The notes beneath the pieces are model-generated. The model searched no databases and had not been told where the DNA came from. It saw nothing but the letters and a program-made list of their open reading frames with translations. A DNA stretch of 58,887 bases, filler included, from Asterionella formosa (Eukaryota), in assembly GCA_002256025.1 (NCBI GenBank). It is 10 parts of 10 records of this genome, joined end to end, with 100 filler letters (N's around TTAATTAATTAA, not from the genome) between each part and the next. Parts side by side here need not be neighbours in the genome. Positions count along the whole stretch, not along the records: positions 47,225 to 53,006 come from NKIB01012924.1; 9 more parts are not named here. One strand, 5' to 3'. The first letter of the stretch is position 1, and each line of letters opens with the position of its first letter. Below are positions 46,142 to 53,006 of the stretch, piece after piece. The translations under genes were made by a program, and so were the position numbers.

Positions 46142-46936
46142 CTAAAAATCCATGCTTCCCATTCCAGTATCCTTTCCTAGCTCTCCATTTCGTTGCTTTA
46201 ACATGGTCTCTCCAATCATCTTCTTCATTTTATCATCGCCATTGTCATACATTTCCTTCATCATTTCCATAATTCCTTGTGATGGATCTTCCTTCCCTTT
46301 CCCCTTTAGTTTGGTCTTCTTGCTGACAAGCTCTGACCAGTGATCAAATCCGTATTCGCCCTTCACCTTTGCAAGTTTGAGCACAACCTTATCAGTCTTT
46401 ACAGTGTATGAAGATTTGTCTGTGTCAATATCGTGCGAAAGATTGTCTTTGAAGAGTCGGTATGACTTTCCATTCAAGTCCTTGACAATAAGATCAAATG
46501 AACCAGCTTTAAATTCACATGTGATGAGGCCCTTATCTAAAGCTCCCACCGCAGGCAAAGGCACATACACCGTAACATGGCTCGAATTGTATTTTCCAGC
46601 GTCAAAGGAAAAGCGATCGATTGGATGAAACTTGGCACTTGGCATGATCGGGGGCACAGCTACTGTTTTTGGAGGATCAACTGGTTGAACAGCAACTGGT
46701 ACAGCGGGCTCCTCGCTAACAACCTTCGCTGCATTCTTGGCTCGACTTACTTCCACTCTCTTCAACGCCTCGCTCTCCTTTCGAAGTTTCTTACAAAGAG
46801 CTTCCAAATGCATCTTGGCGGTAGGTCGGGTAACGGAAGCAGCCGCCTCTTCAATGGCTTCGGCATCCAGTAAGCGCTCACCTGATTGAAGAATTTCTTC
46901 AATAACGACTTCGTCGATATCTTCTACGTCAACCAT
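46142..46936 (-). CDS. CACYBP: calcyclin-binding protein / Siah-interacting protein (CS + SGS domains)
   Basis: CS domain (SFDLIVKDLNGKSYRL..NL..DIDTDKS..VKTDKVVLKLAK) and SGS DPSQGIMEMMKEMYDNGDDKMKKMIGE. Confidence 0.92.
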   Translation of the reverse strand: MVDVEDIDEVVIEEILQSGERLLDAEAIEEAAASVTRPTAKMHLEALCKKLRKESEALKRVEVSRAKNAAKVVSEEPAVPVAVQPVDPPKTVAVPPIMPSAKFHPIDRFSFDAGKYNSSHVTVYVPLPAVGALDKGLITCEFKAGSFDLIVKDLNGKSYRLFKDNLSHDIDTDKSSYTVKTDKVVLKLAKVKGEYGFDHWSELVSKKTKLKGKGKEDPSQGIMEMMKEMYDNGDDKMKKMIGETMLKQRNGELGKDTGMGSMDF

Positions 46937-47371
46937 CTTCGATTGTCGCTCAGCGTTGGTAACAGTACTGAAGGCAGTATATTTAAACGATAGTACCGGT
47001 ACTCTTTCCGCTTTTTACACCTAGACTAAACTTCAATTGTTATGACAACTTTGGATGAGGGCTACCAACCACCCCAGGTCCCTGGTAAGGGTACTGGTAC
47101 CAAGGGGTACCAGTGTACCGGTATNNNNNNNNNNNNNNNNNNNNNNNNNNNNNNNNNNNNNNNNNNNNTTAATTAATTAANNNNNNNNNNNNNNNNNNNN
47201 NNNNNNNNNNNNNNNNNNNNNNNNTTCTTCCTCCCTGCTTTCTTTTTCATTTCTGCTCCAGAGGAATGAACCGATGATAAGATATAAAAGTGCAAAGCAA
47301 CTGATATTGACTTGTTCCTTTCATCTCATCTCCTTCCAACCAACGATACAAAAGTCATTCATTGCAGTAGT

Positions 47372-49781
47372 ATGGTAAGGCTCTCCTTAGCGATAGGCGC
47401 ACTCCCAGTATGCATCCTTTCCTATCCTACCATTAGCGCCTTTGCGCCAATCTTCCCTCTACCATCACGCTTGTTGCTGCTTCCTCCTCGTCCAGCAAAT
47501 CATCACCTAGACTATGTTAGCAGCAGAAGTAGCAGCAGTGGTTCAACTACTACTACAGCTCTGTTTGGAATTCCCAAAATGTTTCGATGGCTGACAGATC
47601 AATATCCTAATATTAACAAACGAATCAATGAAGGACTCGCGGCCAATACTATTCAAGTAGACAACTTGTACTTGGATATGAACGGAATCATCCACCCGTG
47701 CACACATGGAAATGCAGAAGGAGTTGTGATTGTCTTGGATGAGACTGCCATGTTTAAGAAAATATTCTTATACGTGGACCGGTAAGTGTTGCTGACAAGG
47801 ATCTCTCTATATAGATACCATGGCGTTCCATTCATTCACTTCTCTCTCACTCGTCATGACCAACATCAAAATAACCTGTAGCCTTTACAAACTAGTTCAA
47901 CCTGGTAATGTTCTCTATTTAGCTGTGGATGGCGTCGCCCCACGTGCCAAGATGAATCAACAACGATCTCGGCGCTTTAGATCTGCCAAGGAGGCGGAAC
48001 AAACTGCCATGGAAATTATGGCCAGAGATGGGGTCATGCCACAAGGGACAGCCTTTGATTCCAATTGCATTACACCAGGTACTGACTTTATGCTTAAATT
48101 GAGTTTAGCCATGCAAAAGTGGGTAGAATTTAAAATCGAGACGGATCCATTTTGGAGTTCTGGGGCAACTGTGATTGTTAGTGGACCTGATGTACCGGGG
48201 GAGGGGGAGCACAAGGTCATGGACTTTATAAGACAAGAACGAGACAAGTACCAAAACAAGGATCCCACATCACACTATGAACCAGACCAAACACACGTAT
48301 TGTATGGATTGGATGCAGATCTAATCATGTTGGGACTTGTCACGCATGAACAGAATTTTATGTTGTTGCGGGAGAAAATGTCGGTCGTTATGGCTGGTCG
48401 TGGAAGAAACAAGGGACAAAAGAAAAAAGATATGCTGGAATACAATGAAAATGATTTTGAAGTGCTGGAACTAAAGTCACTCAGGGAATTGTTGTCGATT
48501 CAATTTAGAAGATTTTCTGATGACATGTTGAAAGTGCCATATTCTTTGGAGAGAGTGATTGATGACTTTGTTTTCATGTGCATGATGGTGGGTAATGACT
48601 TTTTGCCACATTTGCCTCATATGGAAATTGACAATGGAGCTATTAGTCTTATGATGTCAACCTATGTGGAGTTACTTCCGGAGTGGGGGGATTATTTGAC
48701 CGACAAAGAGAAGATTCACCCAGCTCGGTTTGAACAATTCGTTTATCAATTAGCTGTGTACGAAGAGGAGCATTTCAAAAGGCGAGGACACGACGAGAAT
48801 GAACCAGGTTGGAAGCTTTCGACGGCGTTAGAAAACGAGGATACAGACTTCTATGGTACTTATTATGGTGGCATGCCGACACCAGAATGTGCAGTTCCTG
48901 CAAATCGAAAAGGTGCTGTGGCTCCACCAGAGAATGATCAGACAGCAGGGTTCTTGCCAGTAGACAATATGGCCTTTCGAAAAGATCACCCTGGTGATGT
49001 GAGTAGATCATACCGCGATTTTTACTACAACAGCAAGTTGAAGTGGCCTGTGACGGACAAGAATCGAACACTCTTCCAGCGCCGAGCCATTGTCCGCGAC
49101 TATATGGAAGGTTTGCACTGGAACTTGAACTATTATCACAACGGATGTATGTCGTGGGAATGGTTCTTTCCGTACCTCTATGCTCCCTTGGGGACGGATC
49201 TGGTCAATTTAGATGAATTCTACGGCGAGGATTCACCCGCCAATGAACGTGGCTTCAAGACGTTTCCTTTCGAAAAGGGCGAACCATTTCCTTCGTTAGG
49301 GCAGTTGCTATCTGTTTTGCCACCTCAGTCTGCTGCACTCTTGCCCAAACCTATTGGAGAACTCATGTTGCATCCTTCCAGTCCACTTATTGAATACTAC
49401 CCTCAAGACTTTACTTCGGATGCCAACGGCAAGCGTCAATCCTGGGAAGCCGTTGTTCAGATTCCTTTTATTGAAGCTAAGGACTTGTTGGGTACATTGA
49501 ATCAAGTGTTGGACGCGGATGCCCAAGCTGGCGAGGTAGAAGGTCTCCTTACCAAGGGCGAGAGACGGCGAAATGAGCGAGGCACGTCTCGGGAATTTGT
49601 TCCTCCCCAGGCCGGTCTTGACCCTGAACAAAGGGACGTGATTGCCCGACAAGCCAAGGCGTCGACACAAGTGAGTCGACCCCGGCAATCTGCCAACGGA
49701 GGCGGACGTGGTGGTAGTAGTGGACGGGGCCGTGGAGGTGGAGGTCGAGGCTCCCTTCAAAACAAGCGACAGTCCTTCTAG
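47372..49781 (+). CDS. XRN-family 5'-3' exoribonuclease with plastid-type presequence, 2 exons (47372-47781, 47882-49781), 769 aa
   Basis: GIPKMFRWL, DNLYLDMNGIIH, AVDGVAPRAKMNQQRSRRF, FDSNCITPGT, GEGEHK, YGLDADLIMLGL, GNDFLPH, YYHNGCMSWEWFFPYLYAP, QLLSVLPPQS. A 100-bp GTAAGT...TAG intron keeps the frame. Confidence 0.95.
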
Positions 49782-50508
49782 TCAAAAAGGTTGCGATTTA
49801 TCAAATTAATTGCTAATAATATACTTGTTCCAAATTTTAGCCAAAACTAGGTAATAAGCTCTCTAGTCGTTCGTGACTTCGCTCAAGATCATGTGGGGAA
49901 ATCTAGATGTATGATTTTGACCAATCCTCCATGTAAACCATTCTATCAGTGAAAAACTGTAAGCCACCGTTATTTTAGTAATGCAACATTCAAAACTTGA
50001 TGCAAGTAAGTTTCAAGTGTATGTTAGACGATGCACTCTACTCAACTAATCAATTTTGATCCTATATATATCGAGCCATGAAGATATAATGTCCCCAAAG
50101 TCATTAATAAGATTGTCGCATAGCAGTACCTTTGGGTCACAATACCCCAGCAGCATTCTATTTGGGTCTTGTAACAGCACTTAAAAACATAATTCATACT
50201 TTTTAACATGGGACTTGTAATGAACATCTCTTTCAGGAGGTAACACGTGTCTTGTACCAAATAGATCATCTGTGTAGACATTGAAACAAAGAACCACTTC
50301 GCCTATGTGAACATCATGATAGCTAACAGTTATTAAAGAAACCAAACTTAAATTGAAACTCACCTATAATGCGCTTTCTAAGACCACAGAGTTACACATG
50401 GAATTTCAAAGCACGGCCTGCCAACAAGTCCATATGCTTCCCTAGTTGTGTCAGTATAGGTGAGTCCGCAACCATCTTTTGCAAATGATGATCATCTTAG
50501 CCACAGCA

Positions 50509-50727
50509 TTAGGGGAAACTCCGACCATCTAGGAAGGTGGCACACTGCGCAACCCACTTTTCAACCAGGAAACAATTGCGGGAATTGAACCACAAAACTT
50601 CAAATCAAAGGCAATGTGCCCAACTAGCTGTTGTTTTAGAAGCAATTGTTGCTTGGGTTCAACTCCCACATTCCTTACCATCCCGCACAGTCTTGCCTAC
50701 TAGTGCGCAAGAAATAGTGGGTTGCTG
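50509..50727. mobile_element. tRNA-derived repeat, copy 2 (rearranged)
   Basis: Shares ttaggggaaactccgacc and gcgggaat(c/t)gaacc...aaaggcaa(c/t)gtgc with copy 1, plus an inverted copy of its central ~75-bp module. Confidence 0.65.
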
Positions 50728-51341
50728 ATTGATTGCAATATTGCAATTTGAATTTAGTCCTCATGGAGGCCGACAAATGTAATGCTTATGCTCTGGTATG
50801 ATGCCGTCAAAACTACCAGTAATAATGTGCAGCAGCCCATTCATACATACCGTTACATATGAAACCCAATCTATACTTGGCAAGCCACCCATGTGCTGAC
50901 AGGAGTGAACTGGTAACTCAATTTCCTTCTGCAGTGAGCTGCAGTGAGCAGGATGTAGGCAGCATGTACGAATGAATTAAGGACAAAGTTTGTCTAGTTT
51001 AAGCAAAATTTTGCTTCAAGTATATTTTCTTAAAGTAGAGTCCATTTGCTTAAACTAACATAGTCCCTCAGTACGTGAGCCCAAAATTACAAATTGTCCG
51101 AACCTGTTTTGTCCGTACTAAACCAGCAGGCATGAACCGTTATGTAGAAGTTTCATACTTTGATTTCATAAGCTGCCGAGTCAAGAATTTGGGAATGTGT
51201 ACACAAAGAAGCAAGATTACTGCAACTACCTTGCTGGAAGTTTGATTCTCGCAAGAAAACATGGAATAAGTCTAGTCGAACTAATCAAACGTGGAGGTGG
51301 TTCACAGCAGTTTTTCTATGTTAACTGGTACCAGGTACGAG

Positions 51342-51430
51342 CAAGTTGCGGTCATTTTGCTTAAATAAACAATTTAATATCTGATAAAGAAAGCTAAAGT
51401 TTTAATTTCATCACAATTTTTACCGCAACT
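51342..51430. mobile_element. ~90-bp MITE, copy 1 (degenerate right end)
   Basis: caagttgcggtcattttgct...ttaccgcaact, homologous to 51615-51702. Confidence 0.7.
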
Positions 51431-51614
51431 ACCGTTAGCAGGTTTCAGGTTGGTGGTGGTACCCTGGTTACCTGGTACCTGGTACCCTGAGGTACACTTG
51501 TTAGTCCAGTCGTTAGTACTTACAGGTTAGTTTTAGTTACTACTGGTACCGTGGCGTTTCTTCTAGTATACCGGTATACTCGGAGTACCAGGTAGTCTTG
51601 GCTACCGTTACCAG

Positions 51615-51702
51615 CAAGTTGCGGTCATTTTGCTTAAACTAACATTTTAATCTGGCAAAAGGATAGCTAAATCTTTAGTTTCAGCAAAATTACCGCAACT
51701 TG
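51615..51702. mobile_element. 88-bp MITE with 20-bp TIRs and CAG TSD
   Basis: CAG|caagttgcggtcattttgct...agcaaaattaccgcaacttg|CAG. Confidence 0.8.
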
Positions 51703-52496
51703 CAGTTACTGCTATGATTGCGTGTACGTTTATAGCGGTTGAGGATTTAACAGCCGGCGCGTTGTCCTTCCTGCTGGGGTTTTTTTCTTCGCGAAATGTA
51801 ACAGTAAAGCACCTACTTGAGAACCTTGAAGTTGCAGGCAGGAGAAAATGGTATGATATACCGGTACTGGTCCATTATTAAAAAGGGGTTTTGTCCGTGT
51901 GAGTGACGATAGGAACCTCAAGGAACAACTACCCAAATTTATTCCATATTTATGCTTACGTTTGTACACATAGAAGGGACCATGATGTGGACAAACAGGA
52001 AAAAGGCTAAGTAACCGGAACCAGGACGGTACTCGGAGTACCAGGCATCAAAACTACCATGTACCATTGAAGTTTCTACAGACTTAACCGGTACTGTAGT
52101 CCAGTCTACCTGTGCTGGTATGGAGGTGACGATTGTTCAGCATCCGCTGTTGTACAGTACCTGGAACCGGTGCCAGGTAGACCAGGTATCTGTACATAGT
52201 CTGACGTAAATTTATGTGACTCGCATTGCAGTTTTTGGTGTACGCAATTGCAGCCACTGATGATCTTTTTGCAGTGAAGATGTAATACTCAAGCACCAAG
52301 TGAGCGACGATTCTGGAACGTAATTGGGAGAAATCTCATTTATCATTAATTGCCATCGTGGTTAGAAGAAACAGACAATTCATTTGCTTTCTTTGGAATT
52401 ATAATTTTTAATCTAAGGGTTCAACACGTTTGTTGAACAAGCAAGAGTTTTTACCGTCATTTGTTTGAATTCATATAGGTATAGATGCTTCATTGA

Positions 52497-53006
52497 TCAT
52501 GATCTCAAAATGCGATCAATCCCTCGTTGAATAGACAATCGTCGAGCGTGATGTTGTGATACATGTTGTTCCTCCAACACTCGCAACGCCAGCTGATATT
52601 GCTGCAATGCATCCTCTGGCTGATCTGATCGCTCATAGCAATACCCCAAATCATTCCGTGTGATTGCCATTTCCATTTGAAACGGAGTCCCATCTAAAAG
52701 TTTGAGTGCCGTTTCGTGGCATTGTACCGCCGCTTGGACATTTTTCTGCACGTGGAGGCGGACCAGTCCCAGCGAATTCCAAGTTTCCGCTAGTTTCCTG
52801 TTGTTGTCATTGACACATTCCACGATTCGTTCTTCTTCTTGCCGTAATCGCATGGACTGGTGCAAGTCCCAGGCCGACGACGTCGACGTGGATGTAGAGG
52901 ATGACAAGGACGATGACAGGGAGGAATTATTCATCTGAAACTGTTCGAGGTCTGCCAAAATCAAGTCCAGCCGAACGCTGCAATTGCTGTTGTTGCTGTT
53001 GCTGCT
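52497..53006 (-). CDS. TPR-repeat protein, C-terminal part (5' end beyond the contig)
   Basis: LAETWNSLGLVRLH..AAVQCHETALKL and MAITRNDLGYCYER..ALQQYQLAL, with poly-Ser/Gln upstream. Confidence 0.8.
   Translation of the reverse strand, partial: SSNSNNSNCSVRLDLILADLEQFQMNNSSLSSSLSSSTSTSTSSAWDLHQSMRLRQEEERIVECVNDNNRKLAETWNSLGLVRLHVQKNVQAAVQCHETALKLLDGTPFQMEMAITRNDLGYCYERSDQPEDALQQYQLALRVLEEQHVSQHHARRLSIQRGIDRILRS

Follow-up and report, generated by a model that had tools for sequence, protein, structure and literature searches.

How does an exoribonuclease of the XRN family come to carry, in a diatom, a long presequence in front of a helix that in other members begins at the very first residue? 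The question is raised by a gene at positions 47372-49781, on the + strand, of a window of Asterionella formosa DNA (assembly GCA_002256025.1); the window is the whole stretch analysed, 58,887 nt made of ten parts of ten records joined end to end with filler letters between them, and the gene lies in the part taken from NKIB01012924.1 (positions 47,225 to 53,006). The 5'-3' decay of RNA in plastids is attributed to the bacterial-type RNase J, and to our knowledge XRNs are regarded as strictly nucleo-cytoplasmic eukaryotic enzymes. In this study, we describe a conserved clade of presequence-bearing XRNs, found in diatoms, bolidophytes, pelagophytes, chrysophytes, xanthophytes and brown algae, to which the A. 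formosa protein belongs, and the sequence comparisons set out below suggest that the enzyme probably acts inside the diatom plastid.

Presequence, enzyme core and gene model

The protein begins with MVRLSLAIGALPVCILSYPTISA (residues 1-23) and FAPIFPLPSRLLLLPPRPANHHLDYVSSRSSSSGSTTTTALF (residues 24-65), after which comes GIPKMFRWL, the beginning of the XRN core. An earlier note on this DNA, made from the sequence alone, had described an in-frame extension of about 65 residues with no Met directly before this motif, and had distinguished in it a hydrophobic signal peptide, an ISA-FAP cleavage motif and a Ser/Thr/Arg/Pro-rich linker ending in TTTTALF; all of these are present, the signal peptide as a putative one. 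The start codon and the putative signal peptide occupy 47372..47440, the best hydrophobic 9-mer being residues 8-16 (mean Kyte-Doolittle hydropathy 2.57), followed by the small-x-small site I-S-A. The ISA-FAP motif (47432..47449) is of the ASAFAP type, as defined in the part of the ASAFind paper available to us (PMC4329603), and places a Phe at position +1 of the predicted cleavage site, which is residue 24. The stretch that resembles a transit peptide in composition (residues 24-65, 47441..47566), ending in STTTTALF, is a linker of 42 residues with 8 Ser and 4 Thr (12 S/T), 6 Pro, 3 Arg and one acidic residue, an Asp. The same part of that paper sets out the features of diatom plastid presequences, among which the Phe at +1 is crucial for import, and these are matched here by F24 and by the hydroxyl-rich, acid-poor linker. 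No second in-frame Met occurs between residue 1 and residue 70.

The remainder of the protein is that of a member of the XRN family with an intact predicted active site. The XRN_N domain (PF03159, cut-off 22.9) is divided by an intron into a first part at 47567..47781 (63.2 bits, 3.3e-17), which runs from G66, with the alpha1 helix GIPKMFRWL and the D35 and H41 equivalents (in LDMNGIIH), to the end of exon 1, and a remainder in exon 2 at 47882..48377 (202.7 bits, 7.7e-60), which holds the equivalents of D86, K93, Q97, R100, R101, E176, E178, D206 and D208; profile positions 2-76 fall on residues 66-136 and positions 79-241 on exon 2, so that 2-241 are covered jointly. XRN_M (PF17846), the helical domain of Xrn1, scores 273.2 bits (5.5e-81, cut-off 23.8), with its best stretch at 49008..49601, including the W540 equivalent. 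At E<=0.01, Pfam gave no family besides these two, and none of the C-terminal domains of Xrn1 (D1-D4/SH3); the protein extends about 60 residues past XRN_M and closes with a basic, RGG-rich tail (residues 741-760, 49692..49751), which bears out the earlier description of a catalytic core plus an RGG tail.

The nearest solved chains are those of Xrn1 (9e70, at 2.2e-108, 2y35 and 3pie), ahead of Xrn2. In printed alignments, on which the active-site positions were counted by eye, the seven acidic residues (equivalents of D35, D86, E176, E178, D206, D208 and D291) are identical to those of 2y35 and 3pie, as the earlier note had claimed for the catalytic acidic motifs. The pocket for the 5'-monophosphate (K93, Q97, R100, R101) and the base-stacking pair, H41 and W540, are likewise identical to the solved Xrn1 chains, and align with the motifs AVDGVAPRAKMNQQRSRRF, MNGIIHPC and RQSWEAVV; the names and roles of these residues, in the numbering of K. 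lactis and Drosophila Xrn1, we take to be those of the Xrn1 structure papers. The A. formosa protein thus shares with Xrn1 the XRN_N and XRN_M core, the acidic site, the phosphate pocket, the stacking His and Trp and GIPKxFRW, at 41-48% identity to long Xrn1-like representatives. Unlike Xrn1, which has 1400-1900 residues, it is 769 residues long with no matched D1-D4 or SH3, and it carries a basic RGG tail and a presequence of 65 residues instead of Met1.

In this regard, the alpha1 helix deserves attention. Its motif, M-G-[VI]-P-x-F-[FY]-R-W, comprises residues 1-9 elsewhere, and is intact here but starts at residue 66: the XRN_N profile begins at its position 2 on the G of GIPKMFRWL, and a Phe replaces Met1. 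The helix is therefore predicted to become N-terminal solely via proteolytic processing, its internal position concerning the precursor form and not membership of the family. According to the part of PMC9512700 available to us, the alpha1 helix is functionally important and removal of the first four residues reduces activity. This need for a free N-terminus tells against a translation start at the Met inside KMFRW, as well as against gene models of 700 residues that begin at MFRWL.

The gene, a nuclear one, has two exons and one intron of 100 nt, and encodes, after splicing, 769 codons and a stop. The coordinates given in the earlier note hold, but the intron inside the range had been overlooked; a mechanical list of open reading frames on the + strand gives one frame ending at 47785 and another at 47820-49781. 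The intron, of the GT..AG type (47782..47881), has its donor GTAAGT after GAC-CG at 47781 and its acceptor CTGTAG ending at 47881. The RNA evidence consists of Logan contigs from four runs (X1, X2, X5 and X7), one per study from four studies, and the skip of these 100 nt, identical in all four runs, is the sole joint seen in them. The start of the protein is the ATG at 47372, the first in-frame ATG 3' of an in-frame TAA at 47285. This TAA lies in the 5' leader (47243..47371), within the RNA contigs, together with two upstream open reading frames, one of 3 residues (ATG 47266) and one of 34 residues (ATG 47274) that overlaps the main ATG.

Rather than starting downstream of 47372, an outcome that the earlier note had considered, the contigs of the four runs start at 47243, 47274, 47283 and 47297, all 5' of the ATG, although contig ends are not true transcript starts; at the other end they stop at 49783-49831, past the stop codon (49779..49781) and in the 3' untranslated region. 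A single X2 contig covers 47243-49831, with the intron spliced out and the presequence retained, and the contigs of all four runs are collinear with the genome from 47372 to 47780, the whole presequence included. Mature spliced RNA contains the region 5' of the internal Met. A 12-nt in-frame insertion is present behind 47543, in the (ACT)n part of the presequence, in the X1 and X2 contigs, and a 4-nt indel at 47330, 5' of the ATG, in the X7 contig; both fit the gene model. We also considered the presequence as an intron, joining ATG (before gtaagg) to GGA-ATT-CCC, and rejected it, the sole nearby AG acceptor (47557-47558) being out of frame and the RNA contigs collinear.

Several observations accompany the gene model. 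Freshwater metatranscriptome contigs carry population variants, with single-nucleotide polymorphisms at 47379, 47458, 47461 and 47481, of which one is conservative (R3K), two are synonymous and one is L37H. Two public models of the A. formosa gene, P0003 and P0283, both of 700 residues, have the Met of KMFRW as their first residue, so that presequence and GIPK are missing, P0003 differing in one residue (VPHQ vs VPPQ); in practical terms, these models are probably N-terminally truncated annotations. P0048, a diatom orthologue of 811 residues, has an additional in-frame stretch of 36 residues exactly between YVDR and LYKLV, where the A. formosa gene has its intron. The stretch looks like an unspliced intron in that model, and the intron position therefore seems to be shared.

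Conservation of the presequence and family tree

Searched against longer proteins, exon 1 had 321 matches, the best 120 of which are mostly diatom proteins of 690-850 residues, many spanning 90-100% of the query, extension included; the diatoms named among the matches listed are Seminavis, Nitzschia, Cylindrotheca, Mayamaea, Pseudo-nitzschia, Thalassiosira, Cyclotella, Skeletonema and Detonula. Together with the A. formosa protein, these best 120 of 321 make up a diatom-type set of 121 sequences. At least 25 residues precede GIPKMFR in 112 of them, none with a Met at the canonical position, and several ochrophytes outside the diatoms have such extensions too; orthologues thus keep the extension, the lack of which in relatives had been named in the earlier note as a point that would tell against plastid targeting. 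Just before GIPKMFR the sequence is constrained, with T at -4 in 100, L at -2 in 111 and F, Y or L at -1 in 96 of the 112, the linker being otherwise variable. The conserved residues point to what may be a conserved processing junction.

When exon 2 was scanned against the full library and P0126, a relative from outside the diatoms, served as query in a word search, the family grew to include chrysophytes (Epipyxis, Dinobryon), pelagophytes (Aureococcus, CCMP2097), Tetraparma, Tribonema, Ectocarpus, Undaria, Chrysoparadoxa, Heterosigma, Phaeomonas, the chromerid Vitrella and many red algae. We collected 137 non-redundant proteins of at least 500 residues with a GIPK[ML]FR junction, and found extensions of at least 25 residues in 115, of 2-24 residues in 8, and a start at M-GIPK in 14. 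For the long extensions we asked, by a home-made hydropathy and motif rule, for a hydrophobic 9-mer followed within 20 residues by [AGSC] and then Phe. The pattern is present in 107 of the 115, as against 794 of 5750 (13.8%) shuffled extensions, and the presequence is thus conserved beyond chance. The linker after the Phe is 17-63 residues long (median 41), with 25% S+T, 3.8% D+E and 10.6% K+R.

The named non-diatom relatives number 13, namely 12 ochrophytes and Vitrella. Six (Tribonema, two from Ectocarpus, Chrysoparadoxa, Pelagophyceae CCMP2097 and Aureococcus) have a putative signal peptide followed by [AGS] and Phe. The model from Heterosigma is partial, with GNA-F present and the hydrophobic start not clear, and those from Tetraparma, Dinobryon and Epipyxis are truncated at the N-terminus. 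In most non-diatom ochrophytes the Met of KMFRW is replaced by Leu (GIPKLFRWL), and the internal Met therefore cannot be a conserved alternative start. By contrast, 81 of 118 long (at least 850 residues) Xrn1/Xrn2-like representatives start with M-G[IV]P at residue 1, the motif being elsewhere in 4 and no N-terminal motif being detectable in 33.

The red-algal relatives (among them Cyanidium caldarium KAK4535555.1, Galdieria, Porphyridium, Pyropia and Gracilariopsis) have the same short architecture as the A. formosa protein, belong to the same family in the tree and are about 46-50% identical to the ochrophyte members. They differ in their N-termini: of the 10 named, 8 are complete at the N-terminus, and all of these start with MG[IV]P and are without an extension, while 2 are fragments whose first residue already lies within the domain. 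The red-algal proteins are presumably cytosolic or nuclear. One red-alga-type member, P0447 (856 residues, grouping with florideophytes), has a stretch of 70 residues rich in Ala, Arg and Pro before MGIPKMFRFL, which could be either a genuine extension or 5' leader sequence that was translated.

Trees were built from the XRN core, with the extensions removed, under LG+G4, for the sequences that our searches reached. In a quick search with 92 rows, the short XRNs form one clade (Shimodaira-Hasegawa-like approximate likelihood ratio test, SH-aLRT, 99) that is separate from the Xrn1-like and Xrn2-like representatives; within it, red algae are sister to ochrophytes plus Vitrella (92), the latter group having a support of 100. 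A careful search with 50 rows gives 100/99 for the short-XRN family, 98/98 for red algae with ochrophytes plus Vitrella, 100/100 for ochrophytes plus Vitrella and 100/100 for diatoms with Tetraparma, and places A. formosa among the raphid pennates. The presequence-bearing clade across ochrophytes, which the earlier note had proposed to look for by phylogeny, is thus recovered, and the class-level groups found inside it fit vertical descent. With cryptomonads and haptophytes added (109 rows), the short-XRN clade comprises 85 rows (support 100) and contains cryptomonads (100), haptophytes (99), red algae (96) and ochrophytes plus Vitrella (99) as groups. Twelve Xrn2-like representatives form a separate clade (100), and the A. 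formosa protein falls on the Xrn1 side of the Xrn1/Xrn2 split.

Within the sample, the short-XRN family is confined to red algae and to lineages with red-derived plastids. The simplest history that these trees suggest is descent from the own Xrn1-type gene of the red-algal endosymbiont, the root and the direction of transfer being left aside by the trees. The earlier note had envisaged the recruitment of a eukaryotic XRN paralogue; a eukaryotic XRN with a plastid-type presequence it is, but one of a short family shared with red algae and not a paralogue of the host enzyme.

The short XRNs of haptophytes are probably, on the same comparisons, also of endosymbiont origin. In this group (Prymnesium, Diacronema and Isochrysis included), 14 of 21 proteins have N-terminal extensions and 7 start with MGVP; the extensions mostly show a hydrophobic start and an Ala/Arg/Pro-rich linker, some with [AS] followed by Phe, and the Met before GVPKFFRW is kept. 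The clade holds P0419, P0423, P0425, P0427, P0429, P0430, P0433-P0437, P0461 and P0213, and a SAP domain (PF02037) occurs in some haptophyte-type members. In the case of cryptomonads, the proteins named 'dhm exonuclease' (P0475, P0479, P0459, P0463 and P0473; UXY87457.1 and UXY87955.1) belong to the same family as the A. formosa protein, from which they differ in their length of 541-556 residues and in their MGVP start. They have the make-up expected from an AT-rich genome, with FYMINK at 0.38-0.39 (Cryptomonas sp., C. curvata) vs 0.16-0.27 in the other members checked, and these features fit nucleomorph genes. The 'dhm' gene is probably a nucleomorph gene, a placement for which we found no confirmation in print; if nucleomorph-encoded, the proteins would act in the relic cytoplasm of the endosymbiont and not in the stroma.

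Two further observations concern the searches. Clusters of short XRNs in the ESM Atlas (515-638 residues), which lie outside the tree sample, are dominated by Nucleocytoviricota (giant viruses), and two Cannabis sativa models, P0125 and P0428 (1248 and 1314 residues), contain two tandem XRN cores each and ranked high only because both halves match.

Candidate compartments

The reading that we favour, at a rough probability of 0.7, is that of an Xrn1-type nuclease of red-algal ancestry which would be imported into the stroma and would do there the job that RNase J does in plant chloroplasts. For location, processing site, activity and substrates we infer the following course. The signal peptide would take the precursor co-translationally into the endoplasmic reticulum and be cut at ISA-FAP, whereupon the exposed transit peptide, led by Phe, hydroxyl-rich and poor in acidic residues, would bring the protein across the remaining plastid membranes into the stroma. 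Removal of the transit peptide close to G66 would free the alpha1 helix that XRNs need. The mature enzyme would then processively hydrolyse 5'-monophosphorylated plastid RNA, such as would arise downstream of endonucleolytic cuts or by removal of pyrophosphate, serving in the decay of endonuclease products and in the trimming of 5' ends up to barriers of protein or structure, as RNase J does in plants. As for the gene, the endosymbiont's Xrn1-type copy would have moved to the host nucleus and gained its presequence before the ochrophytes diversified.

A number of points weigh against this reading. The ancestral compartment of the enzyme is the cytosol of the red-algal endosymbiont, that is, the periplastidial compartment (PPC), and not the stroma. 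Primary transcripts of plastids carry 5'-triphosphates, which XRNs do not attack, and an upstream endonuclease or pyrophosphohydrolase must therefore be assumed. The full activity of Xrn1 reportedly depends on domains outside the core, and the A. formosa protein is without them; the same domains are missing from all the red-algal relatives too. With regard to the presequence, 14 of the 137 relatives start directly with M-GIPK and another 8 are extended by fewer than 25 residues, some of them probably as truncated models; the models from Undaria, Phaeomonas and Vitrella begin MGIPK. The home-made rule, passed by more than a tenth of the shuffled extensions, is failed by 8 of the 115 long ones, among them clearly truncated models and two with other patterns. 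Finally, all trees were computed under LG+G4 only, and the addition of cryptomonads and haptophytes turns the four clades into a polytomy.

Of the alternatives, that in which the protein stops in the PPC, the relic red-algal cytoplasm, as a leftover of the cytosolic mRNA decay of the endosymbiont, is the one that survives best, and we regard it as rather unlikely. The PPC would be the ancestral home of what is by family a red-algal Xrn1-type enzyme, the MGVP-starting, AT-biased cryptomonad members fit nucleomorph genes with products acting there, and PPC proteins too use a signal peptide followed by a transit-like peptide. Such proteins typically have no aromatic residue at +1, and ochrophytes have no nucleomorph, as is well established, so that there is no RNA substrate known in the ochrophyte PPC. 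The Phe at +1, in contrast, is kept in 107 of the 115 long extensions, and is described as crucial for import into the diatom plastid in the part of PMC4329603 available to us.

Dual targeting, to the plastid and to a second compartment (the mitochondrion, or the cytosol by means of an isoform made by leaky scanning), seems unlikely. Dual organellar targeting is reportedly known for other diatom proteins, and we found nothing direct in its favour for this one; against it stand the lack of an in-frame Met between residues 1 and 70 and the lack of alternative joints in the RNA contigs.

The hydrophobic N-terminus might also be a plain secretory signal or a membrane anchor of an endomembrane or extracellular enzyme, employed for instance in nucleotide or phosphate scavenging, a view that profits from the fact that the home-made rule, with its 13.8% of passing shuffled extensions, is no substitute for SignalP or ASAFind. 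We think it very improbable, since in 107 proteins the site is followed by a linker of 17-63 residues with the composition of a transit peptide, the Phe at +1 and the T-A-L-F junction before GIPK are conserved, and a signal peptide fused straight to GIPK is seen in no relative among the N-termini listed.

Translation might instead start at the Met of KMFRW (codon 70) and give a cytosolic or nuclear XRN, the extension being no more than an untranslated leader or an error of annotation, but this can hardly be the case. Public models P0003 and P0283 do begin at MFRWL, and two ATGs do stand upstream in the leader. Against this, most non-diatom ochrophytes have a Leu in place of that Met, the reading frame is open from 47372 onwards, the presequence is kept in more than 100 relatives, many of them from transcriptomes, the indel in the presequence is of 12 nt and in frame whereas that 5' of the ATG is of 4 nt, and such a start would lose GIPK.

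A probable eukaryotic enzyme for plastid RNA

If import into the stroma is the fate of the protein, its closest counterpart in function would be the chloroplast RNase J of Arabidopsis and Chlamydomonas, a comparison that is one of functional analogy and not of membership. RNase J trims and degrades plastid RNA exonucleolytically in the 5'-3' direction, up to barriers formed by RNA-binding proteins, as described in the abstract of PMC3799425, and this is the role proposed here for the diatom XRN. The folds are unrelated, RNase J being a metallo-beta-lactamase/beta-CASP protein of bacterial origin, for which the A. formosa protein gives no Pfam match.

A wider scenario can be sketched more tentatively, as a possibility that we would not yet put on a par with import itself. 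In ochrophytes and, independently or jointly with them, in haptophytes, the cytosolic Xrn1-type nuclease of the endosymbiont may have outlived the loss of the nucleomorph and been rerouted from the PPC to the stroma, a step for which the gain of a Phe at +1 might have sufficed; it might now be the main 5'-3' exoribonuclease of the plastid, shaping the 5' ends of mRNA and rRNA and replacing, or overlapping with, RNase J.

Full-text literature searches aimed at the question gave no paper on a plastid-targeted XRN. The main texts of two large papers on diatom and ochrophyte plastid proteomes, PMC5462543 and PMC6723447, contain no nuclease terms in the parts available to us, and the supplements of PMC4329603, which probably hold protein identifiers only, contain none of the terms exoribonuclease, XRN, exonuclease, RNase J or ribonuclease. 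PMC5462543 reports, in its available part, 770 conserved plastid-targeted families, and the short-XRN family may sit unnamed in genome-wide prediction lists such as this one. Literature on RNase J in diatom plastids, including the review PMC7154860 in the part available to us, yielded nothing on algae with red plastids. The XRN family is well known, and so is the import signal, while their combination, its breadth and the red-algal ancestry appear to be undescribed.

As regards the surroundings of the gene, a run of N at 47126-47224, broken by ttaattaattaa, separates it from a divergent neighbour in the window, and is reached by no RNA contig, the earliest starting at 47243. The run could be an assembly gap with a linker carrying stops in all frames, or else a masked stretch; it lies at the join of two parts of the window, where 100 filler letters stand and where parts side by side need not be neighbours in the genome. 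The divergent gene (46142-46936, - strand) encodes a protein of 264 residues with a CS domain (PF04969, E 6.6e-11), of the p23/SGT1/CHORD-partner type.

All together, if the favoured reading is true, the plastid RNA of phototrophs that rank among the most productive is processed by a eukaryotic enzyme, and the presequence-bearing XRNs would make RNA maturation in complex red plastids, an almost unstudied subject, accessible to testing through one gene and its catalytic and targeting mutants. Should the rerouting from the PPC hold as well, this would be the first XRN known inside an organelle of bacterial (cyanobacterial) ancestry, and a case of a cytosolic protein of an endosymbiont reassigned to the organelle.

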